Position numbers and translations under genes: made by a program. Positions 4,248-36,846 of a stretch of DNA of 64,000 nucleotides are shown here, in pieces (the first letter of the stretch is position 1; every line of letters begins with the position of its first letter). The DNA comes from a bacterium. GTDB taxonomy: Bacteria; Patescibacteriota; Minisyncoccia; Minisyncoccales; JAGGXC01. The notes beneath the pieces were generated by a model. That model saw nothing but the letters and a program-made list of their open reading frames with translations. It was not told where the DNA came from and searched no databases. The stretch spans positions 13,800 through 77,799 of the forward strand of contig JAGGWD010000015.1 in NCBI GenBank assembly GCA_021157625.1. Reading direction: 5' to 3'.

Positions 4248-4255
4248 CAAGAATA

Positions 4256-4288
4256 CAAAAACCCCTTGCTTTTAGCGACGGGGTTTTT
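4256..4288. terminator. Bidirectional intrinsic terminator (A-run, GC hairpin, T-run)
   Basis: aaaaacccc...ggggttttt between convergent units: the tRNA pair on + and the hup gene on -. Confidence 0.5.
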
Positions 4289-4311
4289 GTATATCACAAA
4301 AAACCAAAGTC

Positions 4312-4584
4312 TTATTTCACTGCTTTCTTTAATTGCTTTCCGGGTTTAAAGCGAGGGACTTTCCTTGCAGGAATTTTTATCTTTTCTCCTGTTTGTGGAT
4401 TTCGACCTGTTCTTGCTTTTCTTTTTGCTACCAAAAAAGTACCAAACCCAGTCAGTGCCACTGTTTTTCCTTTAGCTAGAGCGTTAGTAATCTCATCAAG
4501 AATTGTATTCAAACAAGCTGTCGCACAAGCCTTTGAACACTTTGCTTTCTTGGCAAGAATTTTTACAAGATCTCCTTTTGTCAT
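4312..4584 (-). CDS. hup: DNA-binding protein HU
   Basis: 90 aa with HU/IHF family motifs (GFGTF, RKARTGRNPQTGE). Confidence 0.85.
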   Translation of the reverse strand: MTKGDLVKILAKKAKCSKACATACLNTILDEITNALAKGKTVALTGFGTFLVAKRKARTGRNPQTGEKIKIPARKVPRFKPGKQLKKAVK

Positions 4585-4633
4585 ATTTTTTGACTTTTTG
4601 ATTAACTACGACCTTTACTTCATTATATCATTT

Positions 4634-6169: not shown

Positions 6170-6249
6170 GTTTTATTTCAGAATTTTGGCCACTTAACAT
6201 CTCCTCGATGATAAGGACCTAAATTCTGGAGTTTAGTGATATTTACAAA

Positions 6250-6276
6250 AACAAACCCACTCCTTAGGTGGGTTTG
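6250..6276 (-). terminator. Intrinsic terminator downstream of clpP
   Basis: Hairpin aaacccac-ctaagga-gtgggttt followed by a T-run on the minus strand just after the clpP stop. Confidence 0.5.
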
Positions 6277-6317
6277 GTACACTTTCAAGATTATTATTTC
6301 TTCGCTAAAACTCTTTC

Positions 6318-6923
6318 TTATTCTTTTGCTTTCAGTTTACTTTCTTTGGTTTCCAAAACTTCATCAATAATACCATACTCTTTTGCTTCTTGAGCAGAAA
6401 GGAAAAGATCACGATCAGTATCTTTTTCAATCTTCTTAATCGGTTGACCTGTATGCTTGGAGAGTATCCGATTAAGTTTATCTTTGATCTTCATCATATG
6501 CTTCGTCCAAATTTCTACATCTACTGCCTGACCAGCGGCTTTTCCCATTACTTGATGAAGAAGTATCTCAGAATTTGGTAAAGCATATCTTTTGCCTTTG
6601 GCTCCAGCAGCAAGCAAAATTGCTCCACCCGAGGCTGCTTGTCCAAGACAGCATGTCGAAACATCGCATTCTACATATTGCATAGTATCATATATAGCTA
6701 AAGCAGAAGTAACTATCCCACCTGGACTGTTTATATAAAGATAAATATCTTTTTTAGGATCTTGAGAAGCTAAGAACAATAATTGAGCAATGATCAAATT
6801 AGCCAGTCCATCAGTAATTGGTCCTGTTAGCAAAATTATCCTTTCCTTCAAAAGCCGTGAATAAATATCATAAGCTCTTTCTCCGAATTGACTTTTCTCA
6901 ACTATTGTTGGGACTAAGGGCAT
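6318..6923 (-). CDS. clpP: ATP-dependent Clp protease proteolytic subunit
   Basis: 201 aa with the catalytic Ser context GQAASGGA and His/Asp motifs; highly conserved ClpP sequence. Confidence 0.9.
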
Positions 6924-6950
6924 AGTTTTTGATGAAATATCAGGTTGGTA

Positions 6951-8231
6951 TCAAACTCTTTCAGCAAAACCCTCCAATAATTGAAGAGTTTTCTCATTAA
7001 TAATTCTCTCCTTAGTATACTCTTTTAACTTCTCCAAATCAAGTGACTTGGCAGATTCAATATCTGGATAATTCTTAAGTAACTGATTAATCTGATCTTC
7101 TATCTCTTGAGGAGAAGCGGTAATATTTTCTCTCTTACTGATTTCTCTAAGAACCAGAGAGATCTTAATGTTCCTGAGTGCTGGCTCCAGAAAGCTATCT
7201 TTGATTTCTTTCTCTGTTTTCTTTGTTTTTGCTAAATAATCTTCAAACGACATCTTAGAGTTATTCAAAAAACTTTCTTTAAATTCAGAGAACAATCTAT
7301 TTTTTTCTGCTTCTATAAGAACTTGAGGAATATCCCATCTAATAGAATTAATGATTTTTTCTAAAATTTTCTGTCTGAATTTTTCTTTTGCTTTATTTTC
7401 TTTTTCTGCCAAGATCCCTTCTCTTATACTTTCTTTCAAAGAAGAGAGGTCCCGAAAGTTTCCAAGAGATTGAGCAAATCTATCATTTAATTCAGGTAAT
7501 TCCATTCTAAATACAGAAATCAGTTTTATTTTGAAAGTTACTTTTTTCCCTGCTAGCTCTCTCACAAAGTGATTTTGAGGAATAGTTAAAGAAAATTCCT
7601 CTGTTTCTTGACCTGCTTTCATTCCTTCTATTTTTTGCTCAAATCCAGGAATAAAACCTCCCTGTCCTAAAATAAAACCGTCCTTTCTTTTCTTTCCATT
7701 TTCTATCTGGGGAGAAAAATATTCAATTTCGACAAAATCTCCCTTTCTTGCTTCTCTGCCGAGAGCAATTAACTTTGCTCGAGAACGACGCAACCAATCT
7801 ATTGTCTTCTGAACTTCTTGATCGCTAACCTGAACCCTTTCTCTTTTCAGAGAAGATGCAATCTTCCGGTAATCTGGCAGTTCAATTTCTGGTAGAACTG
7901 TCACTCTGGCTCTAAAACTAAACGGACTTCCGAGAGCCATCTTTAGAATTTCGATCTTTGGCCTATCAATTACCTGAAGATTGTTTTCTTTTACAATCTT
8001 TATGTAATATTGAGTTACCGCTTCTTGAGCAGCCCTCTCAAGAATCCGTAGCGTTCCTATTTTCTCCTCTATTATCGATTGAGGAACATGCCCTTTTCTG
8101 AAACCTTTAATTTCTATATCTTTCCCTAAATCAGAAATTGCCTTTCTGTAATATAAAACAAACTCTTCTGAAGGAATTTCAACTTTTATTTCAATTTCGG
8201 AATTAGATATTTTTTTAATTGACTGAGTCAT
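6951..8231 (-). CDS. tig: Trigger factor
   Basis: 426 aa with an N-terminal ribosome-binding region (GFRKGHVP motif) and a typical tig-clpP arrangement. Confidence 0.8.
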   Translation of the reverse strand: MTQSIKKISNSEIEIKVEIPSEEFVLYYRKAISDLGKDIEIKGFRKGHVPQSIIEEKIGTLRILERAAQEAVTQYYIKIVKENNLQVIDRPKIEILKMALGSPFSFRARVTVLPEIELPDYRKIASSLKRERVQVSDQEVQKTIDWLRRSRAKLIALGREARKGDFVEIEYFSPQIENGKKRKDGFILGQGGFIPGFEQKIEGMKAGQETEEFSLTIPQNHFVRELAGKKVTFKIKLISVFRMELPELNDRFAQSLGNFRDLSSLKESIREGILAEKENKAKEKFRQKILEKIINSIRWDIPQVLIEAEKNRLFSEFKESFLNNSKMSFEDYLAKTKKTEKEIKDSFLEPALRNIKISLVLREISKRENITASPQEIEDQINQLLKNYPDIESAKSLDLEKLKEYTKERIINEKTLQLLEGFAERV

Positions 8232-8264
8232 TGGAATATGATAGCATCTGAATAGTTCTTTGAG

Positions 8265-8753
8265 GTGAGAATAATGATTAGGAGATTAATAGCCGGTTTT
8301 GTTCTCCTTTGCTTCAACGGAATAGGAGGAGTTACTGCTTATCGATTGCTTGGAATACCTTTTCATATTACTTTTTTCATTGTGACTGTATACTGGTCGG
8401 GCACACTACTCCTTACCTATTATGGGACAGGATGGATAGCCAAAAGAATAAGAAAATGGAAATATATCAATATTCTTATCAGCTCAGCAACAGGCTGGTG
8501 GAGACAAAAAATGGTACTTCTCCAAAGTCAAGAAAGACTAAGGGAAAAATGTATTCTCTGGCTAGTGAAGCAAAAAGAATGGGTTGTGATGGTGCTTACT
8601 TTTGTTCCTCTTATTCCTGAACTACCAACCATAACCATCATAGCAGCTCGACTAATGAAAATAAAATATGCACTTCCTATCCTCTTGACAGGGAATCTTT
8701 TCAGAACGTTTGTATTGGTAGCAACTATTTATCACCTCCTTCCTTCTCTATAA
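8265..8753 (+). CDS. Hypothetical polytopic membrane protein (162 aa)
   Basis: Multiple predicted TM helices and no recognisable motif. Confidence 0.35.
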   Translation: MRIMIRRLIAGFVLLCFNGIGGVTAYRLLGIPFHITFFIVTVYWSGTLLLTYYGTGWIAKRIRKWKYINILISSATGWWRQKMVLLQSQERLREKCILWLVKQKEWVVMVLTFVPLIPELPTITIIAARLMKIKYALPILLTGNLFRTFVLVATIYHLLPSL

Positions 8754-8758
8754 GCGTC

Positions 8759-9313
8759 CTAGCACGCTTCTTTTTGTTTCTGGCGCCAGGCTTTTGCGGC
8801 CTTCTCGATTATTTGAAATGCTTCTTTGCGATCTTTCCATCCCTCTACTTTTACATACTTGTATTTCTCCTTTTCCAGTTTTTTATAATCAGAAAAGAAG
8901 AGTTTTATTTCTTCTCTTAGGTGTTCGCCCAAATCCTCAATATCTCTTATTTCCTTAAATCGTGGATCTACTTTATCAACTGGCACAGCAATAATTTTGT
9001 TATCTGGTCCTTTCTCATCTTTCATCAAAAGCACACCAATAGGACGAGCTTTCACTACGCAACCCGAAAAAGTTGGATAAGTAGCTAAAAGCACAACATC
9101 CAGAGAATCGCCGTCTTCAGAACATGTTTGAGGAATAAACCCGTATTCAAAAGGAAAGAACAAAGGAGAATAAATCACTCTATCTAGTTCAAAATAACCT
9201 TTTTCTTCATTGTATTCGAACTTGCTTTTTGAACCTTTAGGAATATCGATTACAACATTAATCTCTTCAGGTAGATTCTCTCCTGGATGTATATCTTTAA
9301 AGAGATTAGTCAT
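8759..9313 (-). CDS. ppa: Inorganic pyrophosphatase
   Basis: 184 aa family I PPase motifs (DxDxD-type acidic residues, NVVIDIPKGS, DGDPLDVL-like segment). Confidence 0.85.
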   Translation of the reverse strand: MTNLFKDIHPGENLPEEINVVIDIPKGSKSKFEYNEEKGYFELDRVIYSPLFFPFEYGFIPQTCSEDGDSLDVVLLATYPTFSGCVVKARPIGVLLMKDEKGPDNKIIAVPVDKVDPRFKEIRDIEDLGEHLREEIKLFFSDYKKLEKEKYKYVKVEGWKDRKEAFQIIEKAAKAWRQKQKEAC

Positions 9314-9327
9314 AGTTTAAAATAAAA

Positions 9328-10608
9328 TTATTTTTTATCATTTCCTTTTTCTTCCTTTTGGTTTTTGTTTTCTTCATTTCCTTTTTCTTCCTTTTGGTTT
9401 TTGTTTTCTTCTGTGTCTTTTGCTTCTTCTTTTGCTTCTTCTTTTGCTTCTTCTTCGTTTCCTTGAGCTGTCTCAATGCTATCACCTTCTTGAGCTTGAA
9501 CATCTATTCTCCAACCGGTCAATTTTGCCGCTAATCGTACATTCTGACCATTCTTTCCAATGGCCAAGGATAATTGATCTTCAGGCACAATAACCTTGGC
9601 TTTATTCTTGGGTTCTATTTTCACCTCCAAGACTTTTGCAGGAGCTAGAGAATTAGCTATATATTTCTCTGGGTCTTCTGACCATTCAATAACATCTATC
9701 TTTTCTCCTCCTAGTTCATTAATCACTGCCATAACCCTTGTCCCTCGTTGACCAACTACAGAACCAATAGGATCAATCCCTTCAACAGTAGAAGTGACAG
9801 CAATCTTTGAACGAGAGCCCGGTTCCCTTGCTATAGATTTTATCACCACCTCTCCTGAGGCAATTTCTGGAACCTCCAATTCAAACAATTTTGAAATAAA
9901 TTTAGGATAAGCGCGGGAAAGAAAAACTAAAGGACCTTTCGGAGTTTTTTCTACTTTAAGAACGTAAGCCTTAAGCCTTTGAGAAACACGGTAAAACTCT
10001 CCCGGGGTCTGCTCAGCAGGAGGAAGAATGCCCAGAGTTCTTCCTAGATCTAGGTAAACATTTTTTCCTTCTATTCTCTGAACAATACCTGAAACTATCT
10101 CGCCTTCTTTCTTTTGAAATTCTTCAAAAATAGTCTCTCTTTCTGTCTCTTTAATTCTCTGCAAAATTACCTGTTTGGCAGTCTGAGCCGCAATTCTTCC
10201 ATAATCTTTTTCAGTCTTCAAAGGTATGTGGAGTTCTTCTCCTGCCTTTATTTTAGGATCTATTTTTCTGGCCTCTTCTATCATAATATGCCTTTCTGGA
10301 TTGAAACGCACTTTCTTTTTTTCCTTTAATTCCTCCTGCTTGGTCGAGTCTTTGGGCTTCTTTTTTAATTCTTCTATCTCTTTGTCGGTAAGCAACATAT
10401 CCTTATCAACTACTAATTTAACCTGCCAAAATTTAAGATCGCCGGTTTTGGGATTGAGTTTCGCCCGGATCTTTTGTCCCTTCTTTCCATAATCTTTTTT
10501 ATAAGCAGCGGCTATTGCTTGCTCGATAATCTCAATAACTTTCTCCTCAGGTATTCCTTTCTCTTCCGCAATTTGAGCAACAGCCGAACTGAATGTCTTC
10601 AAATCCAT
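9328..10608 (-). CDS. nusA: Transcription termination/antitermination factor NusA with acidic low-complexity C-terminal tail
   Basis: N-terminal domain, S1 and two KH motifs (GxxG); the C-terminus carries EEAK x3 and 12-aa x2 tandem repeats. Confidence 0.85.
   Translation of the reverse strand: MDLKTFSSAVAQIAEEKGIPEEKVIEIIEQAIAAAYKKDYGKKGQKIRAKLNPKTGDLKFWQVKLVVDKDMLLTDKEIEELKKKPKDSTKQEELKEKKKVRFNPERHIMIEEARKIDPKIKAGEELHIPLKTEKDYGRIAAQTAKQVILQRIKETERETIFEEFQKKEGEIVSGIVQRIEGKNVYLDLGRTLGILPPAEQTPGEFYRVSQRLKAYVLKVEKTPKGPLVFLSRAYPKFISKLFELEVPEIASGEVVIKSIAREPGSRSKIAVTSTVEGIDPIGSVVGQRGTRVMAVINELGGEKIDVIEWSEDPEKYIANSLAPAKVLEVKIEPKNKAKVIVPEDQLSLAIGKNGQNVRLAAKLTGWRIDVQAQEGDSIETAQGNEEEAKEEAKEEAKDTEENKNQKEEKGNEENKNQKEEKGNDKK
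9338..9409. repeat. 36-bp perfect tandem repeat x2 (inside the nusA 3' end), followed by a 12-bp x3 repeat
   Basis: tcatttcctttttcttccttttggtttttgttttct occurs twice back to back, then cttttgcttctt x3. Confidence 0.7.
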
Positions 10609-10696
10609 TTTATTCTTTAATATTTATTCCTTTATATTTTAAAAAAGGTCTCTTGAGACGACCTTTTAATTAAGTATAGGAAAAGGAGAAAAACTG

Positions 10697-11104
10697 TCAA
10701 GAGTCAGAGATAGCATTTCTTATATGATGGATTTTTGCCTTTCTCTCCTTGAGAAATATCTCCACAGTTATAACATCTATTTGCCACTTAGTTTCCTGAG
10801 GATAAGCCTTCTCCAGAAGATAACTTTCTGAGGTTTTAATAATCTTTCTTTGTTTAAGAAAATTCACCTTATCCTCAGGAAAGAAAACCTTTTCTTCAGA
10901 ATCCTCAGAATTTTTACAGACCACGGTCTTTACTTCAACAAACAAAAGCGTATCTTCTTTTTGAGCTATAATATCTATCTCTCCTTGAATTGGCCCTGAA
11001 ATAAAATTGGGAGAATAATTCCTCTCCAAAATTTTGTATCCTCTCTTTTTAAGATATACAGCAGCAATCTCTTCTCCCAGCTTTCCTACTTGAGAAGAAT
11101 TCAT
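10697..11104 (-). CDS. YraN/UPF0102 family endonuclease-like protein
   Basis: 135 aa matching the YraN pattern (GE.IA..YL...GY.IL.RN......GEIDII..., ...FVEVK). Confidence 0.65.
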   Translation of the reverse strand: MNSSQVGKLGEEIAAVYLKKRGYKILERNYSPNFISGPIQGEIDIIAQKEDTLLFVEVKTVVCKNSEDSEEKVFFPEDKVNFLKQRKIIKTSESYLLEKAYPQETKWQIDVITVEIFLKERKAKIHHIRNAISDS

Positions 11105-11259
11105 ATTACTGAGAATTGTACTTGATGTTATTCAACCATCTCGATATTAAAAATCCCAAAGCTCTCATTAAGCGATAGAGGTTTTCTCATTTTATTCGGC
11201 CGAATCTCTCTCTTTGGTAGAAATAACACAACTATTGAAATACCAATATGGAAGTTTTT

Positions 11260-11577
11260 CTAACCAATGAGTATCCAAGTTATAATAATGAAGAGATAAG
11301 AAAATACAGTAGAAGATCCCAGGAGAATTCCTAGAATAGCCAGTGATTCACCTTTTAACTCTCTTTTTTTGATATCGATTAAAGCTTTTATTCCAAGAAT
11401 AACCGCGATAAAGGGGACTATCAGAAGCGCCCCGATCATAATATCCATAAGAATCTCTTTTATAATTGGATTCATAGCCATGCCTACTATGGTATTATTT
11501 AGCCAAATAAAAAATACCAAGGTAGACAAAATACCCAAAAAGAAACTCCATATTGCAAAACCGCTAGTTTTAGACAT
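11260..11577 (-). CDS. Small hypothetical membrane protein (3 TM)
   Basis: 105 aa, hydrophobic. Confidence 0.35.
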   Translation of the reverse strand: MSKTSGFAIWSFFLGILSTLVFFIWLNNTIVGMAMNPIIKEILMDIMIGALLIVPFIAVILGIKALIDIKKRELKGESLAILGILLGSSTVFSYLFIIITWILIG

Positions 11578-11718
11578 GTTTCAAAATATTTTGAGATCTT
11601 TTGACCTTTAATCAAGAGTGTTAGAGAAAGTGTAAACAGACAGCTTTTATCAACTCCTGTATCAAACTAAAACTTGGTGAACCCATTATTCTTATCAGCT
11701 GTTCGAACTTGTCCTTTT

Positions 11719-11792
11719 TGGTGGACCTGATGGGAGTCGAACCCATGTCTTCCCGATGCGAACGGGATGCTCTACCGTTGAGCTACAGGCCC
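11719..11792 (-). tRNA. tRNA-Ala (anticodon CGC), CCA encoded
   Basis: Reverse complement reads gggcctg...caggtcc-a-cca. The G3:U70 pair is the alanine identity element; anticodon loop ttCGCat; T-arm atggg-ttcgact-cccat. Confidence 0.8.
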
Positions 11793-12244
11793 TTTTTTCT
11801 TTTGAAACAAAACCTTAGCATTTTAGAAAATCTTGTAGAAAGAAAAACTGCTCCTACTTCTAAAGCAGTAGTATGAACTTCGGCAAGGGTATTTAAAGGA
11901 TGACCTTCTTCTGAGAAGGAAAAATACCCTTTAGTAATAAAATTTATGAAAGAAAGAGAGACGGCAAAAATAATCCATGCATACAAGAACCATTCTCCTT
12001 TTCTCTCTTTTTCTTTCTCTCCCATCCATCTTAACATCTCTTTATGAAGAGAATAGATAAGAAGAACTCCTACATAAAAAATGTTCATCTGGCTTGGTGG
12101 GAAATTGCCTCTTGTAAAAAATTCTATTGCAATAGTTCCCATTAATAGAAATGTCGTTAGAGAACATATAAGAAAAAGTTTTGCGTTAACCGCTTTTTCT
12201 ATTTTCCTTATCTCATTCATCTTGCTAAGCTCTTTTTCTTTCAT
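11783..12244 (-). CDS. Hypothetical membrane protein; start moved to the internal Met because the longer ORF overlaps tRNA-Pro
   Basis: The ORF track gives 11783..12334, but residues 1-30 overlap the tRNA at 12251..12321. The Met at 12244 (MKEKELSK...) lies just downstream of the tRNA. Confidence 0.35.
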   Translation of the reverse strand: MKEKELSKMNEIRKIEKAVNAKLFLICSLTTFLLMGTIAIEFFTRGNFPPSQMNIFYVGVLLIYSLHKEMLRWMGEKEKERKGEWFLYAWIIFAVSLSFINFITKGYFSFSEEGHPLNTLAEVHTTALEVGAVFLSTRFSKMLRFCFKRKKGL

Positions 12245-12250
12245 ATTTTT

Positions 12251-12321
12251 TCGGGATACCCAGATTCGAACTGGGGCTACACCCTCCCGAAGGGTGCGTG
12301 CTACCACTACACCATATCCCG
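12251..12321 (-). tRNA. tRNA-Pro (anticodon CGG)
   Basis: Reverse complement reads cgggata...tatcccg-a. C1:G72 pair, anticodon stem caccc/gggtg, loop ttCGGga, T-arm cccag-ttcgaat-ctggg. Confidence 0.75.
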
Positions 12322-13785
12322 TCAAGCAACCCAATATTTTTCTTTTGTCATTTTATCTTTTTTGATAATGACTTCGTTTATTTTCTTTTTGGCTTCCAGC
12401 GATTCTTTTTTCAAAGTCTCTTGGTCCAACTTTCCTAATTCTTTTACTCTCTTCAAAAGGTATTCTTTTTCATTTCTTGAAGGATCATCCAAAACCTCTC
12501 CTAAAAGAATTTGAAGTATCTGTCCAATCATAGGGCCGGGAGGAATTTTAAGAGTCTGCATTATTTCATTTCCTCCTATCTTGAGCATTTTTACATCAAT
12601 AGGGTCTTGAGAAACCTTATCAACCACATAAAGGAAATGTCTTAATTTATAAGGTAGAGCTTTAGGACATCCAGAACCAATACGATCACACATTCTTACT
12701 TGAACAAGCTCTTTTATGTTCTCTTTCCCAACTCTACGCAACAACCTTCTTACAGAAGATTCTCCTACCTCACCTACATTATAATAAAACAAGTGATATC
12801 TTACTAACTTAACAATTTTTTCTATATCTTTTTTGGGAAATCTAAGACGTTCTAAAATCTCGCGAGTCATCCTGGCTCCTACTATTTCATGATTGTAAAA
12901 AGTTGCATCCGGCCCTTCTCCTTTCTTTACCCTAGGTTTTGCAATATCGTGCAATAAAGCAGCTAATCGCACATATTTGTTGAAATTCCTTTTAGCAGCA
13001 TAATCCAAAGATCGAAGAGAATGCTCATAAACATCATAAATGTGGTGTTTGTTTTGAGTAACTCCATATCCTTCTTCTAACTCAGGTATAATATACCTAA
13101 GAAGTCCTAGTTTTCTTAGCAATTCTACTCCTTGTGCCGCATTCTCTGACATAATGATTTTCATAAATTCATCTCTGATTCTCTCTTTAGAAATAACCTT
13201 AAGCCATGAGGCGTTTTTTTTAATCGCCAAAAATGTATCTTTTTCTATCTCAAAACCAAGAATAGTAGCAAAACGCGCTGCTCTCATCATTCGTAAAGCA
13301 TCTTCGGAAAACCTCTCTTGAGGATCTCCCACTGCTCGAATAATTTTTTCCTTCAAATCTTTTTGCCCAAAAAACGGATCTATTATCTCTAATGCTTTTT
13401 TCTTTTCTAATATTCGAGCAGCCATTGCATTAATAGTGAAATCGCGTCTGGCTAAATCCTCTCTAATTGTCTTTGCCCAATGTACCTTATCTGGATGACG
13501 CTTATCAGTGTACTTTTCATCAATTCTATAAGGTGTAATTTCAACTTCTTTTAGAGTAGGATCAGAGGATCCAGTTAAAACAGTGACTGTTCCAAACTTG
13601 TTGTCAATATAGCTTTTAGGAAAAACTTTCCTGATCTGCTCAGGTTTAGCATTGGTTGCTACATCCCAATCTTTTGGTTTGGTTCCTCTCAATAAATCTC
13701 GCACACATCCTCCTACAATAAAAGCTTCGAAACCTGCTTTTTCAAGCTTGTTTATGATAGAGTTGACTTCCTGAGGAATTTCCAT
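12322..13785 (-). CDS. cca: CCA-adding tRNA nucleotidyltransferase with C-terminal HD domain
   Basis: N-terminal pol-beta nucleotidyltransferase motif (GGCVRD...DWD) and an HD domain (LHDIAK); 487 aa. Confidence 0.8.
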   Translation of the reverse strand: MEIPQEVNSIINKLEKAGFEAFIVGGCVRDLLRGTKPKDWDVATNAKPEQIRKVFPKSYIDNKFGTVTVLTGSSDPTLKEVEITPYRIDEKYTDKRHPDKVHWAKTIREDLARRDFTINAMAARILEKKKALEIIDPFFGQKDLKEKIIRAVGDPQERFSEDALRMMRAARFATILGFEIEKDTFLAIKKNASWLKVISKERIRDEFMKIIMSENAAQGVELLRKLGLLRYIIPELEEGYGVTQNKHHIYDVYEHSLRSLDYAAKRNFNKYVRLAALLHDIAKPRVKKGEGPDATFYNHEIVGARMTREILERLRFPKKDIEKIVKLVRYHLFYYNVGEVGESSVRRLLRRVGKENIKELVQVRMCDRIGSGCPKALPYKLRHFLYVVDKVSQDPIDVKMLKIGGNEIMQTLKIPPGPMIGQILQILLGEVLDDPSRNEKEYLLKRVKELGKLDQETLKKESLEAKKKINEVIIKKDKMTKEKYWVA

Positions 13786-13844
13786 TATACCTTATCTTAG
13801 CCAAGAAGCTTGTTTTTTTCAACATTTTTGATAAAATACAGAAA

Positions 13845-13916
13845 GCCCTCGTAGTTGAATGGATACAACGACGGTCTTCGGAACCGTAGGTCCCCGTTCG
13901 AGTCGGGGCGAGGGCA
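13845..13916 (+). tRNA. tRNA-Arg (anticodon UCG)
   Basis: Acceptor gccctcg/cgagggc-a, anticodon stem acggt/accgt, loop ctTCGga, T-arm ccccg-ttcgagt-cgggg. Confidence 0.8.
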
Positions 13917-13927
13917 TTATATCAATT

Positions 13928-14458
13928 ATGAAAAAAATATTTCTTATATTCTTTATAATCTTCTTACTTTCTCCTTTGTTTGCCCTGGCAGAAGCGAAAA
14001 CTTATTCTATAACAGTAAAGCCGGCCGGAACTAGTCATACAGTAACCTATGAGGGTTTTGTTCCTTGCGGAAGATGTCTTGTTACCACTCCTCCTATATT
14101 GGGATTAAGCCCATGCGAAGGGACAGCAAATCAATATTTTATTCCTTGCCAGCCCTGTCACATTTTTATCATGATTGACTCGATAATTGATTTTATTCTC
14201 TTGACAATTGTCCCTCCTATTGCCACAATCATCTTTATAGCAGGTGGAGTTTCCTTCTATTTAGCAGGAGCAAATCCTGGACAGTTCCAGAAAGCAAAAT
14301 CTGTTTTGACAGCAGCAATTATTGGAGTTGTTATTATTTATACTTCGTGGATTATAGTAAACACCACACTCACTGCAGTAGGGGTGGCAGATTGGGTCGG
14401 TTTCGGTAAAGGATGGTTTGAGATAAAATGTCCTGTAGTATTAGAAGTATCCCCATGA
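13928..14458 (+). CDS. Secreted Cys-rich protein with a C-terminal pilin-like hydrophobic hairpin (VirB2/TrbC-like topology); paralog of the hairpin modules at 27.7-28.1 kb and 28.9-29.2 kb
   Basis: Start moved to the Met after tRNA-Arg. Signal peptide MKKIFLIFFIIFLLSPLFALA, then a VPCGRC...CQPCH motif. Two TM helices are separated by the charged loop GANPGQFQKAKS; this aligns residue-by-residue with the C-terminus of the 836-aa protein. Confidence 0.5.
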   Translation: MKKIFLIFFIIFLLSPLFALAEAKTYSITVKPAGTSHTVTYEGFVPCGRCLVTTPPILGLSPCEGTANQYFIPCQPCHIFIMIDSIIDFILLTIVPPIATIIFIAGGVSFYLAGANPGQFQKAKSVLTAAIIGVVIIYTSWIIVNTTLTAVGVADWVGFGKGWFEIKCPVVLEVSP

Positions 14459-14470
14459 TATAAAAATTCT

Positions 14471-14543
14471 GCGTCCATAGCTCAATTGGTAGAGCAGGGG
14501 CCTCTTAAGCCCAAGGTTGCAGGTTCGACTCCTGCTGGACGCA
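14471..14543 (+). tRNA. tRNA-Lys (anticodon CUU)
   Basis: Acceptor gcgtcca/tggacgc-a, D-arm gctcaattggtagagc, anticodon loop ctCTTaa, T-arm tgcag-gttcgac-tcctgc (one mismatch). Confidence 0.75.
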
Positions 14544-14570
14544 CAGAAAAACAGATCTTTTCTGTTTTTT
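14544..14570 (+). terminator. Intrinsic terminator after tRNA-Lys
   Basis: cagaaaa-acagatc-ttttctg followed by tttttt. Confidence 0.5.
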
Positions 14571-24476: not shown

Positions 24477-25556
24477 TTATCGGGCAAATGGATTTCGAGG
24501 AGGAGAACCTTGAGAACTATAAAGTCCAAAGTGAAGATGGCAACCAGCAGATCCAGCAGGAATAGTTTTTCCAGAATGTCCTATCAATCCAATAAGCTCT
24601 CCTTGCGAAACCTCCTGGCCGACTACTACCAGAATTTTTTGAAGATGTCCATAATGTGTTATCAGCCCATTTGGATGAAGGATTCTAATATAATTTCCTG
24701 CTCCACGATTATAACCATATTTTACCTTCAGCACCTTTCCTCCGGCAGCAGCAAAAACAGGTTTTCCGCAACTATTACCTACATTAGCAAAATCAACAGC
24801 ATTATACCAATGAAGACCTTGAGTAACTCGATAAGGAGAGGAAACTGGGACGATAAAATAACTCGAAGCAACTGGAATTTGACTAAAGGAATAGCTGTAA
24901 CTCCTTACTTGAACAGGCTTAACTCCGCCGGGAATAACCAGAATATCTCCTACATAAATATCTCCCTCTTCTGAAAGATCATTAAAAGCAATAATATCCT
25001 CAATTTTTGCTTTATAAGTACGAGCAATCTCGCTTAAAGTATCACCTTTCTTTACATGGTGAATTACCCCTGAGACCGGAAGGATAATTAATTTCTGACC
25101 AGGACGAATAATAGAGTTTCTTCCTAAATCATTTGCCCATAAAATGGTATTTAAAGAAATACCAAAATCAGCAGCAATAGAACCAAGAGTATCGCCCGGT
25201 TGAACCACATATTCTGTAATTTCCTTTTTCTGAATTTCCTCTCCCGACAATGCAGCTAAGGTCTTGGAAGAAAAAATCTGGAGACAGGAAACTCCAGCTA
25301 AGCTGTTATTCTGGATAAAAGTAAGTTCAGGCGATTCGATATAAGATCTATCTTGAGAATTAATAAATAACTTCTGCTGCTTGAGAGAAACTGCCTGAAT
25401 TCTTTGATCTCCAAAAGAAAAACTCAACCAAAAACCTACAGAAATAACTAAAACCCCTATTAAAAAAACTAAAAATTTGCTCCACAAAGATTTTAACATC
25501 TTGTCTTCTAAATTAGTAAATCTATTCTGAAAGTCAAGTAATTTCTCCACAGCCAT
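24477..25556 (-). CDS. LysM (x2) + M23 family metallopeptidase (cell-wall hydrolase)
   Basis: Two LysM motifs (GDTLGSIAADFGISLNTILWAN; GDTLSEIARTYKAKIEDIIAFN) and an M23 catalytic region (HxxxD...HLHF). Confidence 0.8.
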   Translation of the reverse strand: MAVEKLLDFQNRFTNLEDKMLKSLWSKFLVFLIGVLVISVGFWLSFSFGDQRIQAVSLKQQKLFINSQDRSYIESPELTFIQNNSLAGVSCLQIFSSKTLAALSGEEIQKKEITEYVVQPGDTLGSIAADFGISLNTILWANDLGRNSIIRPGQKLIILPVSGVIHHVKKGDTLSEIARTYKAKIEDIIAFNDLSEEGDIYVGDILVIPGGVKPVQVRSYSYSFSQIPVASSYFIVPVSSPYRVTQGLHWYNAVDFANVGNSCGKPVFAAAGGKVLKVKYGYNRGAGNYIRILHPNGLITHYGHLQKILVVVGQEVSQGELIGLIGHSGKTIPAGSAGCHLHFGLYSSQGSPPRNPFAR

Positions 25557-25575: not shown

Positions 25576-28086
25576 ATGAAATTTATTATAAAATTAAAAA
25601 AAATAAGTATAACACCCATGAAAAAACAAAAAATTTATCTATCCCTTCTTGCGATAATAATATTGATCTCTCTTTTTATTATATTTTTAGCGACAACAAA
25701 AAATCAGCAAGTAGTAAAAGCATCCCCAGGGATATACCTAGAATTCAGATGCGACGAAAACAATAACAAGTGTGGCGACAGAATTCTGGTGAGAGCATGT
25801 GTTGGAACAGGAGGTGAAAAAGTATGTACTCCAGGTTTTGACAAAATAGACGATCTTATCCAGGCAATAAAGGAAAAATGGGGATGGGAAGAACCTGAAA
25901 ATTGGAGCGATCTCCCAAGTCTTTTGAAGTGTAAAGACTATCAAATTTGTACTAGATTAGCCCCTCCTCCTACTGAATGGAGTAAAATACCTGCTTATTG
26001 CAAATGTAAAGGAAAATGTATAGAAAAGCCTAAAAGAGCAGGAACCGAAGAATGCCCCGAATGTGGAATTAGAGACGGAATTGATTTTGTGAATCCTGAA
26101 AGCGGCCCCATCTTCTTACCTGCCCATTTTGATTGGGAAAAGGTAGAGGGAGCAAAATCATATCGATGGAAAGCTGTCCCTGTTGCAATCCCAGGTGTTA
26201 CATATGTACCAAGTACTAACACAAAAACCATAGTCTCTGATGTTATAAGAGATATCTCACACCCTCGCAATCCTCCTACCGAATATACACCACCCTCTTG
26301 TTCTCTTCAATCAGGAAACGCATATTATTGGAAAGTTCAGCCATGTTGTGATCTTGCTGGACTCAATTGTAAACCATGGGCAGAGCTTGATGCCTGGCCT
26401 TTTACTACAAGTCTAGCCCCTGAACCAGCTACTCCTTCTGATCCTGACTGGAATAACACTACCAGTGAAGCAGAAACGCAAGACATTCCTGTAATTCTGG
26501 ACTGGTGTGACCCTCCCGATAACACAGTTATGTTGGGCGAAGGCAGAAAAGGAGAATATTATTATGACCAAGGACGAGGAAAGAATATAACCAGTTATAA
26601 ATTAAAACTTTACCACATAAACAGTGAAAATCAGGAAGAGTGTCATCCTTTATTAGTTAAAGATGGAAAATGTATACCAAAAGAAATAATCCCTGGTTCT
26701 AATTGGCCATGGGATAAACTCTACTCTCTTTGGGAAGACTTCACAGGAACATATTTAATTGAGAACCAACGATATAGATGGCAAGTGGCTACTTGCTATT
26801 TATCGGAAGGAAAGGAATACTGTAGTGACTATAGCCAGAAATGGGGCTTTTCTGTAGGAACAAATATTAGAGAAACAGAATTGATAGCTCCTCCAAATAA
26901 TATCAATGATGCTATAGGTCTTCCTGTGACTTTTAAATGGAACAGAGCAATTGGAATCAATTCTTATAATTACAATATTGGAGGCCATACTGGTACTACC
27001 TCAGCAAACATCATAACTTTTGATTGGCCTGATTTTGAGCTCGATACAGTCTATAATTGGACAATCCAACCCTGTACTGACTATGCAGCTCAAAATTGCA
27101 AAGATTGGCTTGATCCTTGGCAATTCAAAATCACTGGTGCTCCTCCTGTTTTGCTTGCTCCTACAGGAACAGAAGCGCTTTCAGCAGTAATTCCTGTAAA
27201 ACTTGATTGGAAAGATGTCTCAGGAGCAGGCTCCTATGAGTATAGAATATTAGGAGGAATAAGCCCAGTAAAAGGAGTGGTGAATGTATCGGAAGTTGTA
27301 GTAGATTATCCTGATCTGAAACTAAACCATGTCTATACTTGGCAGGTTAGAACATGCGCCCATAAAGATGGAAGCGTATGCGGAAAGTGGAGCAATCTTG
27401 GCGCTTTCACTACTTTCTCAATGGGATTTCCTGTTCTCATAAAACCTTCTCTTAATGCAAAAATTGAAGAACCGGAAATACGGTTCTCTTGGAAACCGTT
27501 GAAAGGTGCTAAGTATTACGAATACGTTATAAAGAACAAGAACACAGGAGAGGAAATCTTTCATAAGATTATAAATTCAGATTCCATCACACACTATTCC
27601 TACGAGTTTCCTGAAGTAGGAGAGTATGAATGGAGAGTAAGAGGATGTCTTGATTCAAGCTGCGGAACGGGAGGTGCAGGACCATGGAGTAATTGGCGAA
27701 CTTTCAACTTAGCACTTACAGCGCCTCCACAAAGACAAGGAGGATTAGTTCCCTGTGGCCGTCTCTATGATGATCCCAACACACCATGGGATGAGAGAGA
27801 ACAATGCCAGATTAAACATCTCTTCTTGCTTATTAGAAATATCTTGGATTTTCTTCTCTGGAAGTTAGCAACCATTCTCTTAATACTCGCATTGGTAGCA
27901 GTTGGGGTTATGCTCTACATCTCTAAAGGAGAAACAACTATTATCTTGCAAGTAAAATCTGCTCTCAAATGGATAATCATAGGATATGGTCTAATACTTC
28001 TCGCTTGGTCTATTGTCAACTTCCTCTTAGCCCTTGCTGGATTTCGGTTTCAAATCTTTGGACATTGGTGGGAACTACCTTTCTAA
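25576..28086 (+). CDS. Large (836 aa) secreted Cys/Trp-rich FN3-like repeat protein ending in a pilin-like hydrophobic hairpin
   Basis: N-terminal signal/anchor; at least 6 repeated ~95-aa modules with FxWxxVxGAxxYxY and Y.W.V..C motifs (FN3-like with paired Cys). The C-terminus (VPCGR...CQIKH then 2 TM separated by KGETTIILQVKS) is homologous to 13928..14458. Confidence 0.6.
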   Translation: MKFIIKLKKISITPMKKQKIYLSLLAIIILISLFIIFLATTKNQQVVKASPGIYLEFRCDENNNKCGDRILVRACVGTGGEKVCTPGFDKIDDLIQAIKEKWGWEEPENWSDLPSLLKCKDYQICTRLAPPPTEWSKIPAYCKCKGKCIEKPKRAGTEECPECGIRDGIDFVNPESGPIFLPAHFDWEKVEGAKSYRWKAVPVAIPGVTYVPSTNTKTIVSDVIRDISHPRNPPTEYTPPSCSLQSGNAYYWKVQPCCDLAGLNCKPWAELDAWPFTTSLAPEPATPSDPDWNNTTSEAETQDIPVILDWCDPPDNTVMLGEGRKGEYYYDQGRGKNITSYKLKLYHINSENQEECHPLLVKDGKCIPKEIIPGSNWPWDKLYSLWEDFTGTYLIENQRYRWQVATCYLSEGKEYCSDYSQKWGFSVGTNIRETELIAPPNNINDAIGLPVTFKWNRAIGINSYNYNIGGHTGTTSANIITFDWPDFELDTVYNWTIQPCTDYAAQNCKDWLDPWQFKITGAPPVLLAPTGTEALSAVIPVKLDWKDVSGAGSYEYRILGGISPVKGVVNVSEVVVDYPDLKLNHVYTWQVRTCAHKDGSVCGKWSNLGAFTTFSMGFPVLIKPSLNAKIEEPEIRFSWKPLKGAKYYEYVIKNKNTGEEIFHKIINSDSITHYSYEFPEVGEYEWRVRGCLDSSCGTGGAGPWSNWRTFNLALTAPPQRQGGLVPCGRLYDDPNTPWDEREQCQIKHLFLLIRNILDFLLWKLATILLILALVAVGVMLYISKGETTIILQVKSALKWIIIGYGLILLAWSIVNFLLALAGFRFQIFGHWWELPF

Positions 28087-28101: not shown

Positions 28102-28764
28102 ATGAAGAGAATATGGAAGTTATTAAAAATTATTCTCTTATTTCTTCTGGTAATAGGAATATTGATTTCTGTGGGCTTGTATTATGCGAGTCAAAAATTA
28201 GAAAAGATAAAAAACTCAATAGAGCCAGAGACTTTATCCCAGATTAATTTCCTAATAAGCAAAGAAGAGCAGAAAAATCTCGAACATAAGGAATTTGTAA
28301 CTCCTGACGGAAAATTAAAGCTCAAATATCTTTCTAATTGGAGAGAGATAAAAGATCCAGCAACGTTAGAAACAAGCCTTCCAAAAGAAATTAAGGAAAA
28401 TTACGGACTTGAGATTTTGTTTCTTGCAAGAAGATTAACGGGTAAAGGATTAAGCCAATTGGAGATATGCAAAGGAACATTGGAAGCTGAGTCTGTCAAA
28501 GAATTTATCGAAGCAACAAAAGCCTTATATCAAAAAGAAGGTTGGGAAATGGAAATTATTGATTCTTCAAAACCAAAAGATAATGAATATATTTTTGAGA
28601 TAAGGTACAGTAAGCCAAATCGGCATTCTTTTAGATCAAAGGAGAAAATAGTTTTCTTAGAAGATACAGCCTATATAGTAACCTTTTTCACAGCAGAAAG
28701 AGATTGGAATAATTTCCTAAAAGAGAGTAACGAAATAATGGATTCCGTAGAGATCATTGATTAA
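28102..28764 (+). CDS. N-terminally membrane-anchored hypothetical protein (220 aa); possible VirB8-like position
   Basis: A single N-terminal TM followed by a ~190-aa extracytoplasmic domain. The role is inferred from its location within the T4SS-like locus only. Confidence 0.35.
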   Translation: MKRIWKLLKIILLFLLVIGILISVGLYYASQKLEKIKNSIEPETLSQINFLISKEEQKNLEHKEFVTPDGKLKLKYLSNWREIKDPATLETSLPKEIKENYGLEILFLARRLTGKGLSQLEICKGTLEAESVKEFIEATKALYQKEGWEMEIIDSSKPKDNEYIFEIRYSKPNRHSFRSKEKIVFLEDTAYIVTFFTAERDWNNFLKESNEIMDSVEIID

Positions 28765-29905
28765 TTTAAAAATGGGTTGGTTTGTGTTAAAATTAAATAA
28801 TATGAAAAAATATAGAAGACAACTACTTACTGTCATTTTTATATCAATATTGATTAGTTTTCTTTCTTTTGGTTCTCAGGTAAAAGGATTAGAATTAAAC
28901 TGGCCTACTGCGCCCGGAGGAAAGGAACTAAGCGATGAAAGTACGCTAGTTGATTTCGTGGATTATGCTTATCGATGGGGAATATTTCTTGGAGGATTAG
29001 CTGCTTTTATTGCTCTCATTATTGCCGGATTTCAATATCTAACTTCGGTCGGAGATCCTGCTAAAATGAAGGAGGCAAGAGAAAGAATTATTGCTGCTAT
29101 TGCCGGTTTGGTTCTTTTACTTTCTACTTTTATTATCCTAAATACTTTGAATCCTGATTTAACAACCCTTTCTCCTCCTACAAGTGATATTAGCGGTATG
29201 CCAACTGGAAACTGGCAAAACCCTGATTGGGATAAACCATGTGAGTTTGTAAAAATCTATAAAGAAAAAAATTATAAAGGTCATATCCTCACAATAGGGA
29301 AAGGAGGGAAATTTGATCTAGAAGAATGTATTCTTACAGGAATAGGTATTCCCATAATACCAGGGGTATGGACATGGTACATTAGCGAAACCCCAATAAA
29401 ATCTGTTTTGATGAAGGGAGCATGCCAATTGAATTTATATGAAGAAGACAAGTGTAAAGGAAATTTCACAGGAATAGGAAAAAGCATGCCGAATCTTGAT
29501 TGGGTTTCCCAAAGTCACATTTATTCAATCAAAGCAGTAGACATTTCTCCTCCTATTCCGCCAAAAGTCAAAACTGTAACATTTCCTCCTCCTACTCCTC
29601 TGAAACAACCCGATGGAACATACAAGGCAACTTTAAAAGGAGCACTGCTTGATTTCGGAAGGACCGACAGAGTAAGAGTACATTTTGAATATGGGAAAAA
29701 CAAACTCTATCTTGATAAAACAGCTCCGCCAGACCCTGAACAGTTTCAAGAGATCTTTGTTCAAGATATACCTGCTGGAGGAATACCGTTTTCTGTAGAG
29801 ATTGAAGGATTAGCTACCAACACTACTTATTTCTGGAGAGCCATAGCAGCAAATGAAGCAGGGCCTGCTTATGGAACTACTTCCAGTTTTACTACAGGAC
29901 CATAA
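28757..29905 (+). CDS. N-terminal pilin-like hydrophobic hairpin module (VirB2/TrbC-like topology) fused to a C-terminal FN3-like extracellular domain
   Basis: Signal peptide (alternative start at 28802, MKKYRRQ...), then helix-loop-helix FIALIIAGFQYLTSVG-DPAKMKEARERI-IAAIAGLVLLLSTFIILNTL. The C-terminus ends with the classic FN3 strand motif YFWRAIAANEAGPAYGTTSSFTT. Confidence 0.55.
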   Translation: MINLKMGWFVLKLNNMKKYRRQLLTVIFISILISFLSFGSQVKGLELNWPTAPGGKELSDESTLVDFVDYAYRWGIFLGGLAAFIALIIAGFQYLTSVGDPAKMKEARERIIAAIAGLVLLLSTFIILNTLNPDLTTLSPPTSDISGMPTGNWQNPDWDKPCEFVKIYKEKNYKGHILTIGKGGKFDLEECILTGIGIPIIPGVWTWYISETPIKSVLMKGACQLNLYEEDKCKGNFTGIGKSMPNLDWVSQSHIYSIKAVDISPPIPPKVKTVTFPPPTPLKQPDGTYKATLKGALLDFGRTDRVRVHFEYGKNKLYLDKTAPPDPEQFQEIFVQDIPAGGIPFSVEIEGLATNTTYFWRAIAANEAGPAYGTTSSFTTGP

Positions 29906-33956: not shown

Positions 33957-34364
33957 ATGGAATTCACAGTTCCTCAATTTATTGAACACGAAGCAAAGGT
34001 AATAGGACCTTTCACTTTTAAACAATTTATTATAGTCGCCATTGCAGGAATAATCTGTTTTGTGGCTTATTACAAAACTCCTCTTTGGGTCTTTATCCCT
34101 GTCTGTATTATTGTAGGAGGAGGAGCTCTTGCTATTGTCTTTGTAAAGATTCAAGGTCGCTCTCCTTTGGTAATGGTAGCCAATTTTATAAGCTTTATCT
34201 TTTCTCCCAAAGTATATTTATGGAAGAGAAAGATAGTACCTATAAGAGTAACTCCAAGAAAGCCGCTTAAAGAAGAAGAAAAAGTCAAAGAACAGATGCC
34301 AAAAAGAGTCAAAAAAAGTAGATTAAGAGAACTATCAATAAAAATAGAGACAACAAGAAGATAA
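33957..34364 (+). CDS. Small 2-TM protein, VirB3-like candidate
   Basis: 135 aa with two adjacent TM helices near the N-terminus and a basic C-terminal tail. It lies immediately upstream of the VirB4-like genes (VirB3-VirB4 synteny). Confidence 0.4.
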   Translation: MEFTVPQFIEHEAKVIGPFTFKQFIIVAIAGIICFVAYYKTPLWVFIPVCIIVGGGALAIVFVKIQGRSPLVMVANFISFIFSPKVYLWKRKIVPIRVTPRKPLKEEEKVKEQMPKRVKKSRLRELSIKIETTRR

Positions 34365-35019: not shown

Positions 35020-36846
35020 ATGCCTTTTCCTTTCTTTAAAAGAAAATCAAGCATACCAGAATTAGAGAAAATCGCTCAAGAAACTATTTTAGATGTAAAA
35101 GATATTATCGCTCCTTCTTCCATTATCGTAGGAGATGAGTCTATAAAATTGGGAGGGCGATTAGCAAAAAGCTTCTTTATTTTCTCTTATCCCCGCTATC
35201 TTAGTACAGGATGGCTTTCTCCTGTAATCAATCTAGATACTCCAATGGATATTGCTATCTTTATTCATCCTCTTGAAACAGGGCCATTACTCAAAAAACT
35301 AAGAAGACGAGTAACAGAGGTACAGGCAGAAATTGCTGAAAGAGAAGAGAAGGGACTAATAAGAGATCCGGCTCTTGAAACTGCTTATCGGGATCTAGAA
35401 ACCTTGAGAGAAAGACTCCAAACTGCTCAAGAAAGAATGGCAAATCTTGGGGTATACATCACTATTTATGGAGAAAATGAAAAACAATTAAAAGAAATCG
35501 AAACAACAATTCGTTCAATCCTTGAAGCAAGGCTTATATATATAAAACCCAATACTTACAAACAAAGAGAAGGTTTCATTTCTGCTCTTCCCTATGGAAT
35601 GGATAAGATCCAAAGGTATACTTTAATGAACACTTCTCCTATATCAAGCATTTTTCCGTTTATTTCTTTTGATTTAAGTAGTAACGAAGGAATTCTTTAT
35701 GGAATTAATAAACACAACAACTCTCTCATCCTCTTTGATAGATTTTCTCTTGAGAATGCCAACGAAGTTGTCTTTGGAAAAGCGGGAGGAGGTAAAAGCT
35801 ATGCTGTGAAATTAGAAATTCTAAGACTGCTAATGCAGGGAGTAGATGTGATAGTAATCGATCCTGAAAACGAATATGAGTTTTTAGCTGATGCCGTGGG
35901 CGGTTCGTTCTTTAACATATCTCTCTCTTCCCAAAACCATATCAATCCTTTTGATTTGCCAGTTGTAAGAGAAGATGAAAAACCTGAAGATGTCTTAAGA
36001 GCAAATGTAATAAACCTAGTAGGACTCCTCCGAATAATGCTAGGAGGGTTAACTCCAGAAGAAGACGCTATAATAGACAGAGCTATTACTGAAACCTATG
36101 CTGCCAGAGATATAACCCCAGAAACAAATCCTGAAACCTGGCACGCCAATATTCCTTTAATGGAGGATTTAGAATCTGTTCTGGAAGGAATGGAAGGAAC
36201 AGAGTCTCTGGTAAGAAGATTAAGAAAATTCACAAAAGGCACTTACTCTCAATTTTTTAATCAACCTACAAACATCTCTATGGAAAAAAGTTTTGTCTCT
36301 TTTGGAATAAGAGACATGGAAGAGGAATTACGTCCAATGGCAATGTTTGTAATTATGCGCTATATCTGGAACAAAGTAAGATCAGAATTGAAAAAAAGAG
36401 TTCTTGTAGTAGATGAAGCATGGTGGATAATGCAGACAGAAGATGGCGCCTCTTTCCTATATGGTCTTGCAAAGAGAGCAAGAAAATACTGGTTAGGAGT
36501 GACTACCGTAACTCAAGACGTTGGTGATTTTATGAAATCCACTTATGGCCAACCAATTATCACTAATTCTTCTATTCAACTACTTCTAAAACAAAGCCCT
36601 GCCACTATAGATGTAGTCCAGAAAGCGTTTAATTTAACCGAACAAGAAAAGTATCTATTGCTTGAATCAGCAGTAGGAGAGGGATTGTTTTTTGCTGGGC
36701 CCAAGCATGTGGCAATTAAAATAGTAGCTTCTTATGCTGAAGATCAATTCATTACCACTTCCCCAGAACAAGTTCTCAAAATTAAAAAAGCCAAAGAAAA
36801 ATTAGCTAAAGAAAAACCTCTATCTGAGGAAGAAAAACTTTATTAA
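35020..36846 (+). CDS. VirB4/TrbE/CagE-family type IV secretion ATPase (608 aa)
   Basis: Walker A GKAGGGKSY, Walker B VLVVDEAWW, and N-terminal conserved YPRYLSTGWLSPV, as in monoderm VirB4 homologues. Confidence 0.75.
   Translation: MPFPFFKRKSSIPELEKIAQETILDVKDIIAPSSIIVGDESIKLGGRLAKSFFIFSYPRYLSTGWLSPVINLDTPMDIAIFIHPLETGPLLKKLRRRVTEVQAEIAEREEKGLIRDPALETAYRDLETLRERLQTAQERMANLGVYITIYGENEKQLKEIETTIRSILEARLIYIKPNTYKQREGFISALPYGMDKIQRYTLMNTSPISSIFPFISFDLSSNEGILYGINKHNNSLILFDRFSLENANEVVFGKAGGGKSYAVKLEILRLLMQGVDVIVIDPENEYEFLADAVGGSFFNISLSSQNHINPFDLPVVREDEKPEDVLRANVINLVGLLRIMLGGLTPEEDAIIDRAITETYAARDITPETNPETWHANIPLMEDLESVLEGMEGTESLVRRLRKFTKGTYSQFFNQPTNISMEKSFVSFGIRDMEEELRPMAMFVIMRYIWNKVRSELKKRVLVVDEAWWIMQTEDGASFLYGLAKRARKYWLGVTTVTQDVGDFMKSTYGQPIITNSSIQLLLKQSPATIDVVQKAFNLTEQEKYLLLESAVGEGLFFAGPKHVAIKIVASYAEDQFITTSPEQVLKIKKAKEKLAKEKPLSEEEKLY

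Follow-up and report, generated by a model that had tools for sequence, protein, structure and literature searches.

A Short, Cysteine-Rich Pilin-Like Gene Conserved between Two tRNA Genes in Parcubacteria

Why should a gene for a small exported protein lie tightly packed between two tRNA genes? We ask this of a gene in a 64-kb window (the whole stretch of DNA analysed, 64,000 nucleotides) from a Parcubacteria/Paceibacteria (CPR) bacterium. An earlier note on this DNA had read the gene product as the third member of a pilin-like hairpin family occurring in three fusion contexts, and had suggested that the module is mobile, or duplicated by recombination, at a tRNA integration hotspot. We find that the family relationship is well founded, that the gene has the marks of vertical inheritance rather than mobility, and that its placement suggests a transcript in which the pilin message is bounded by tRNAs on both sides.

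The Gene and Its Immediate Surroundings

The open reading frame (ORF) at 13928-14458 (plus strand) is real and encodes a protein of 176 amino acids. The ORF list gives a longer form of 199 amino acids (13859-14458, plus strand, from ATG 13859), whose first 23 codons fall within a tRNA gene. Since all 18 orthologs (18/18) begin with MKK(I/L)F and continue with a hydrophobic stretch that resembles a signal peptide and ends in A-x-A, we take ATG 13928 as the true start. The upstream tRNA gene, tRNA-Arg (anticodon TCG; 13845..13916, plus strand), is recognized by ARAGORN and by Rfam (RF00005, 65.1 bits), has no encoded CCA, and occupies the same position in relatives. The downstream one, tRNA-Lys (anticodon CTT; 14471..14544, or ending at 14543, plus strand), is found by the same two means and is likewise conserved. 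Only 11 nt separate tRNA-Arg from the pilin gene, and 12 nt separate the pilin stop codon from tRNA-Lys. Upstream of tRNA-Arg and divergent from it lies cca (12322-13785, minus strand; its orthologs carry the PolyA_pol and HD Pfam families), while rpsO, a NYN-domain gene and pnp (PNPase) follow tRNA-Lys. ARAGORN, Rfam and the ORF map thus bear out the placement between tRNA-Arg and tRNA-Lys, next to cca, that had been reported for this gene.

The strand layout also changes here. The genes to the left of about 13800 (823-13785) are all on the minus strand, those rightward to about 20 kb are mostly on the plus strand, and the GC skew changes sign near the same point. Because dnaA lies at 38864, with dnaA/dnaN and rnpA/yidC at 37-41 kb and away from the switch at 13.8 kb, a replication origin was set aside as the cause, and the change probably reflects coding strand where promoters diverge.

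One Domain Family in Three Fusion Contexts

Are the three proteins related beyond what generic hydrophobic helices would give? By BLASTP, residues 43-152 of the 176 amino acid protein align with residues 723-822 of an 836 amino acid protein (32% identity over 110 amino acids, E-value 2e-10), and the alignment takes in the VPCGR, C-Q-x-x-H-x-F, I-D-F-L, K-S and I-I-G motifs. The shared "SIVN" of the earlier note is WSIVN in the 836 amino acid protein and WIIVN in the 176 amino acid protein. A 382 amino acid protein matches over a shorter span (residues 99-146 against 83-130, 31% identity, E-value 5e-6); the 836 and 382 amino acid proteins have no significant pairwise BLASTP match to each other. 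Against Pfam PF18895 (T4SS_pilin; gathering score 26.6) the 176 and 382 amino acid proteins score above the threshold (31.4 and 35.5 bits) and the 836 amino acid protein just below it (24.4 bits); the latter is tied to the family by its BLASTP match and by an ortholog profile (E-value 3.5e-10). When this profile, a hidden Markov model (HMM) of the orthologs of the 176 amino acid protein, is run unfiltered on all 592 six-frame stop-to-stop ORFs of the window, it matches these three only (E-values 1.7e-77, 3.5e-10 and 1.8e-8). The next-best ORF has an E-value of 0.21, so the profile finds no fourth copy among the 592. The similarity among the three far exceeds that of generic hydrophobic helices, and they share one domain family.

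The contexts are indeed three. In the 176 amino acid protein the module stands alone. In the 836 amino acid paralog (25576..28086, plus strand) it is C-terminal (residues ~723-822, nt 27742-28041), behind a signal/anchor segment and six Ig-like repeats. The repeats end in Y-x-W-x-[VI]-x-x-C (YRWKAV, YYWKVQPC, YRWQVATC, YNWTIQPC, YTWQVRTC, YEWRVRGC), one of them matches the Ig-like domain PF25788, and the region is probably a displayed adhesin stalk. In the 382 amino acid paralog (28757..29905, plus strand) the module is N-terminal (residues ~77-130, nt 28985-29146) and a beta-rich, Fn3-like C-terminal region follows. The listed starts of this ORF (TTG 28757) and of a 769 amino acid ORF (ATG 29853) run into the genes before them, and starts further inside are more plausible, at MKKYRRQ (~28802) and at MSSQKTKIF downstream of 29853, respectively.

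The family reaches far beyond the window. PF18895 is carried by all but one of 25 full-length homologs, and the ortholog profile collects 17,561 cluster representatives at E-value ≤ 1e-3. The module may be terminal, at either the N or the C end of a protein, or repeated 5-8 times in tandem; the tandem-hairpin members P0075 (820 amino acids), P0101 (786 amino acids) and P0161 (563 amino acids), with 5-8 hairpins in a single polypeptide, are hard to reconcile with a simple pilus subunit. The 176 amino acid protein is therefore a further member of an already known and very large family, within which the locus defines a subfamily of short, Cys-rich pilins (156 cluster representatives at E-value ≤ 1e-30). 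The additions made here are modest: a deeply conserved, tRNA-bracketed placement and a Cys4-His subfamily signature.

Protein Anatomy and Cysteines

An AlphaFold2 model built on the ortholog alignment (pLDDT 85.3, pTM 0.69) has a signal helix (2-19), four short strands (24-72), two helices (76-113 and 117-151) joined by the short K-rich loop NPGQFQKAKS, and three short C-terminal strands. A signal peptide is predicted for residues ~1-21 (MKKIF...FALA) and would be cleaved before EA. This signal peptide and the two long hydrophobic helices with a short basic loop are as in PF18895. Among the orthologs, the N-terminal beta region (22-73), which contains VPCGR, is the most variable part and holds the indels; the hairpin and the W/G-rich C-terminal tail are conserved.

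Five residues are invariant in the 18 orthologs: C47, C74, C77, H78, and C168 in the C-terminal tail. Of 174 family sequences, 149 show the same CCCHC pattern. The 836 amino acid paralog keeps the first two cysteines and the histidine, and lacks both C77 (replaced by K, giving C-x-x-K-H) and C168. This joint loss suggests that the protein probably forms two extracytoplasmic disulfides, C47-C74 and C77-C168, the second of which would link the hairpin's two extracytoplasmic ends. The C-x-x-C-H sequence at the start of helix 1 (C74-Q-P-C77-H78; nt 14147-14161) is formally a haem c attachment or CxxC redox pattern, a point to which we return below.

A Type IV Secretion System in the Same Window

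Genes for type IV secretion system (T4SS) machinery, together with the two pilin fusions, lie 10-23 kb downstream of the 176 amino acid gene and adjoin dnaA. From 24477 to 41512 the order is LysM/M23 hydrolase, 836 amino acid fusion, 220 amino acid protein, 382 amino acid fusion, 769 amino acid protein, PrgI-like protein, 211 amino acid protein and VirB4-like ATPase, and then the minus-strand genes jag, yidC and rnpA, followed by dnaA and dnaN. The hydrolase (LysM + M23 peptidase; 24477..25556, minus strand), which adjoins the pilin fusions, is a candidate VirB1-like cell-wall hydrolase. The PrgI/VirB3-like membrane protein (33957..34364, plus strand) matches PF12666 (E-value 1e-7), and the VirB4/TraC-like ATPase (35020..36846, plus strand) matches the TraG P-loop family PF19044 (E-value 1.7e-26), AAA_10 and TraC_F_IV. 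The 769 amino acid polytopic membrane protein has no Pfam match and may be VirB6-like. Two PilB/T2SSE-type ATPases (823-2568 and 47596-48891) have two-component and PAS/FIST signalling genes nearby and are a sign that this part of the genome also encodes a separate type IV pilus system.

The stretch at 24477-41512 is a complete-looking T4SS neighbourhood beside replication-origin genes, and it matches the published Patescibacteria layout, in which T4SS clusters often adjoin dnaA/dnaN/rnpA, LysM/M23 hydrolases are associated with the T4SS in Paceibacteria, and many VirB2-like pilins lie away from virB4 (PMC12102498, Microb Genom 2025). In that survey 1,948 assemblies had VirB2-like pilins by the PF18895 profile, just 1,135 of them with the pilins close to virB4, and the pilin arrays consist of divergent paralogs (mean identity 25%). 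The 176 amino acid protein resembles these pilins in its above-threshold HMM score, its signal peptide and two-helix hairpin, the several divergent paralogs per genome (~25-54% identity reported in PMC12102498, 32% in the window), the presence of copies both near virB4 and elsewhere, and a T4SS that adjoins dnaA/dnaN/rnpA with a LysM/M23 hydrolase nearby. What sets its subfamily apart is an extra beta region, N-terminal and containing VPCG, together with an invariant CxxCH and a W/G-rich C-terminal tail bearing a fourth cysteine; its gene is also fixed in a tRNA-Arg/tRNA-Lys unit, and tRNAs are unmentioned in PMC12102498.

How close is the protein to the classical VirB2/TrbC pilins (PF04956; structure 8exh)? 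It shares with them a small hydrophobic helical hairpin with a signal peptide and a short basic loop, and such weak alignments as can be made are in register. The PF04956 profile gives 12.7 bits against a cut-off of 27.9 (E-value 0.15). With the model as query, Foldseek returns no significant match in the PDB; the Agrobacterium tumefaciens T-pilin (8exh_A) ranks fourth with an E-value of 3.3, a target-normalised TM-score of 0.61 and 22% identity over 73 columns. A PDB sequence search with the 176 amino acid protein returns no match, and hhalign to a VirB2 sequence gives an in-register alignment at 17.8% probability, which we treat as a lead. Because the VirB2/TrbC matches in sequence and structure are weak, we file the protein under PF18895 and not PF04956. 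The two groups differ in other ways as well: we see no sign of head-to-tail cyclisation in the 176 amino acid pilin, where a Cys pair may tie the ends instead, and the pilin belongs to a monoderm-like CPR host whose machine is MPF-FATA-like.

Conservation of the Locus in Relatives

We traced full-length orthologs (41-99% identity) to their contigs and fetched 21 species-representative genomes; the related loci come from metagenome-assembled genomes labelled Parcubacteria, Nealsonbacteria or Patescibacteria. The block cca / tRNA-Arg(TCG)-pilin-tRNA-Lys(CTT) / rpsO-NYN-pnp is present in 23 of 26 related loci (L001-L011, L014, L015, L017-L026). Both tRNAs surround the pilin gene in L001-L009, L011, L014, L015, L017, L019, L020 and L022-L025; in L018, L021 and L026 one tRNA is hidden by a contig end, and L010 has no tRNA-Arg or cca match although upstream DNA is present. 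By tblastn the flanks are alike, with cca bordering the unit at one end and rpsO-NYN-pnp at the other. Across the syntenic loci pilin identity falls from 80% to ~30% and PNPase identity from 80% to 46%; in the farthest relatives, where PNPase is just 46-51% identical and the pilin ~30%, the block is still kept. The pilin diverges faster than its neighbours (in L009, 39% identity compared with 75% for cca and 88% for NYN), which fits a protein predicted to be surface-exposed.

Only in L012, L013 and L016 is the pilin gene placed elsewhere. L012 (3992-8486) has the order ComM-LysM-CHAP hydrolase-KsgA-small Cys-pilin, followed by two or three pilin fusions; this mirrors the window at 22.9-29.9 kb and physically ties the small-pilin subfamily to the T4SS pilin cluster. 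L016 probably has the same gene order, since its ORF layout is the same. In L013 (347-4441) the small Cys-pilin directly follows rpsL-rpsG-fusA, again a highly expressed operon context.

One gene fills the tRNA-Arg/tRNA-Lys interval in nearly all loci, and in some relatives that gene is an extended form of 416-532 amino acids, a putative pilin-adhesin fusion. The extension may be N-terminal, as a 250-300 amino acid insertion between the signal peptide and the VPCG motif (L014 1765-3085; L015 3229-4494), or C-terminal, adding 300-350 amino acids (L021 110-1705; L022 3007-4434; L024 3911-5509). The hairpin is thus repeatedly a foot for extra ectodomains, at a fixed site, as it is in the 836 and 382 amino acid paralogs.

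Mobile Module, Membrane Anchor or Pilin?

Could the gene be a mobile module, or one placed by recent recombination, at a tRNA hotspot for integration, much as had been suggested? It has tRNA genes on both sides, its domain occurs in many fusion contexts, and in two relatives the tRNA cluster has attracted a mobile element: upstream of cca, the tRNA-Ala/tRNA-Pro interval carries an inserted IS605-type OrfB/TnpB (Cas12f-like) gene (L004 1717-2922; L005 1720-2925). The pilin is no part of that element. Against mobility, 23 of the 26 related loci have the gene at this same site, even where pilin identity has dropped to ~30%, and the patchy presence among related genomes expected of a mobile gene is not seen. 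The annotated genes of the 64-kb window include no integrase, transposase or recombinase (around the pilin gene lie cca, rpsO, NYN, PNPase, NusA and the like); no att-like direct repeats bracket the pilin gene, where only chance repeats of 10-18 nt occur; and its GC content (0.36-0.37) is like that of its surroundings and of the window. The in-genome paralogs are just ~32% identical, in contrast to orthologs in other genomes (up to 78-99%), so the duplication is ancient. These observations contradict mobility or duplication by recent recombination, a reading that we consider extremely improbable, and we infer that the gene is vertically inherited. The locus reveals neither a new kind of system nor a mobile element. 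It points to the Cys-rich short-pilin subfamily as a core, vertically inherited gene in highly expressed contexts (the tRNA unit and, in one relative, a position behind fusA), and contexts of this kind make the subfamily a good candidate for the principal structural subunit.

The reading that we favour, with somewhat better than even confidence, is that the protein is a small, Sec-exported, VirB2-like PF18895 pilin of the chromosomal T4SS. After removal of its signal peptide it would rest in the membrane as a hairpin whose K-rich loop faces inward; the C-terminal tail and the variable beta region near the N-terminus would face outward, and two disulfides would clamp the hairpin ends. The VirB4 machine would then extract it and build from it a surface filament or conduit in which it is the main short subunit. 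In the 836 and 382 amino acid paralogs the same hairpin would act as a foot on which large adhesin-like domains are displayed. What is established here is the family membership, the signal peptide with its two-helix hairpin, the two paralogs and the VirB3/VirB4 genes 10-23 kb away beside dnaA, and the deep conservation of the tRNA-Arg-pilin-tRNA-Lys order. Assembly of PF18895 proteins into a filament or pilus is a prediction, as is the role of the 176 amino acid pilin as major subunit, and, the gene being 20 kb from virB4, its link to the machine would rest on family membership and on the relatives L012 and L016. One could suppose instead that the hairpin is merely a membrane anchor, and the protein a static surface or membrane component (for example an envelope-organising or host-contact factor) that is neither polymerised nor handled by the T4SS. 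The distance from virB4 speaks for this reading, as does the lack of significant matches to solved pilin structures; the very large family includes the tandem multi-hairpin proteins P0075, P0101 and P0161, awkward for a simple pilin subunit; and monoderm MPF-FATA systems are normally without VirB2, the pilin function of PF18895 being putative (PMC12102498). We nevertheless hold the anchor reading to be rather unlikely. Of 1948 assemblies, 1135 have pilin-domain genes clustered with virB4 (PMC12102498), and the small Cys-pilin lies inside a pilin/T4SS neighbourhood in L012 and, judging by ORF layout, probably in L016. According to the work as cited in PMC12102498, Ca. Southlakia epibionticum, the only Patescibacteria strain so tested, depends on its T4SS cluster for epibiotic growth, and an essential pilin array is reported for it as well. 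If the protein is indeed a pilin, it would belong to a class of systems on which the epibiotic lifestyle depends in that strain.

The C-x-x-C-H motif raises one more alternative, namely that it marks a redox-active or haem c-binding extracytoplasmic protein, either a thiol-disulfide centre or a cytochrome-like pilin. As a pattern match, C74-x-x-C77-H78 is invariant in the 18 orthologs and present in 149 of the 174 family members, and in the model it sits at the N-terminus of a helix, the place that such a motif has in CxxC redox proteins. Yet no cytochrome c maturation genes (Ccm, CcsBA) or haem genes are found among the annotated genes of the 64-kb window, and the 836 amino acid paralog has C-x-x-K-H and also lacks C168, for which structural disulfide pairs are a better fit. 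CPR bacteria are not known to have haem synthesis or respiratory chains, which also counts against a haem. We therefore regard a haem or redox function as very improbable.

A Possible tRNA-mRNA-tRNA Transcript

How might the pilin gene be expressed from within a tRNA unit? A promoter-like element at 13810..13837 (plus strand) consists of TTGTTT (13810-13815), a 16-nt spacer and an extended -10 sequence, TGaTAAAAT (13829-13837), and ends 7 nt before tRNA-Arg. A generic promoter scan does not flag it. Of 16 orthologous loci, about 10 share a motif, CTTGTTTTTTTCAAnATTTtTGrTArAAT, with a -35 TTG and an extended -10, which there and in the window ends 6-9 nt ahead of tRNA-Arg. This recurrence suggests that the element acts as a promoter. 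Directly 3' of tRNA-Lys, at 14546..14570 (plus strand), is a terminator-like hairpin of the A-tract/stem/U-tract type (RNA fold -9.7 kcal/mol, z -4.5) that is conserved in the closer relatives; the generic scan misses it because its stem is AT-rich.

Across loci the spacer from tRNA-Arg to the pilin ATG is 1-64 nt (1 nt in L001) and that from the stop codon to tRNA-Lys is 2-132 nt, extended forms left out, which leaves little room for an independent pilin promoter. The arrangement is most simply read as a single tRNA-Arg-pilin-tRNA-Lys transcript. Transcription would start at the promoter ahead of tRNA-Arg and yield one tRNA-mRNA-tRNA precursor; processing at the tRNA borders, by RNase P and by 3' tRNA processing, would free a nearly leaderless pilin mRNA; and expression as part of a tRNA unit would give high, constitutive pilin production. 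A leaderless message would be no obstacle, since Shine-Dalgarno motifs are rare in this genome: GGAG, GAGG or AGGA occurs within 20 nt upstream of the start in just 8 of 57 genes of the window, and the lineage appears to start translation mostly without Shine-Dalgarno pairing. A GAGGG at the 3' end of tRNA-Arg was considered as a Shine-Dalgarno sequence and ruled out, its distance from the ATG varying from 3 to more than 20 nt among relatives and such motifs being rare.

We put it at about an even chance that a "tRNA-punctuated" pilin mRNA of this kind, cut from a single precursor made from the tRNA promoter and so coupled to the tRNA/translation regulon, is general in a broad Parcubacteria clade. 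Mixed tRNA-mRNA operons are known, an example being thrU-tyrU-glyT-thrT-tufB of E. coli, and for this reason the pilin precursor would be a variant of such operons and not a new principle. As with tufB, the coding gene would be carried on a tRNA promoter and freed from the tRNAs by processing. The pilin locus differs in that its ORF is bracketed by tRNAs on both sides at short spacings, and in that the cargo is a surface pilin and not a translation factor. In the literature that we searched we found no mention of a tRNA-bracketed transcript for CPR pilins. The layout yields a simple prediction that can be checked in metatranscriptomes.

Two observations on RNA metabolism in the window may be added. 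The genome's tRNA genes are without encoded CCA, so cca must be essential. The window is also rich in RNA-processing functions: an archease-RtcB RNA ligase pair (58153-60018) occurs alongside cca, RNase Y, PNPase, the NYN-domain gene and the RNase P protein.
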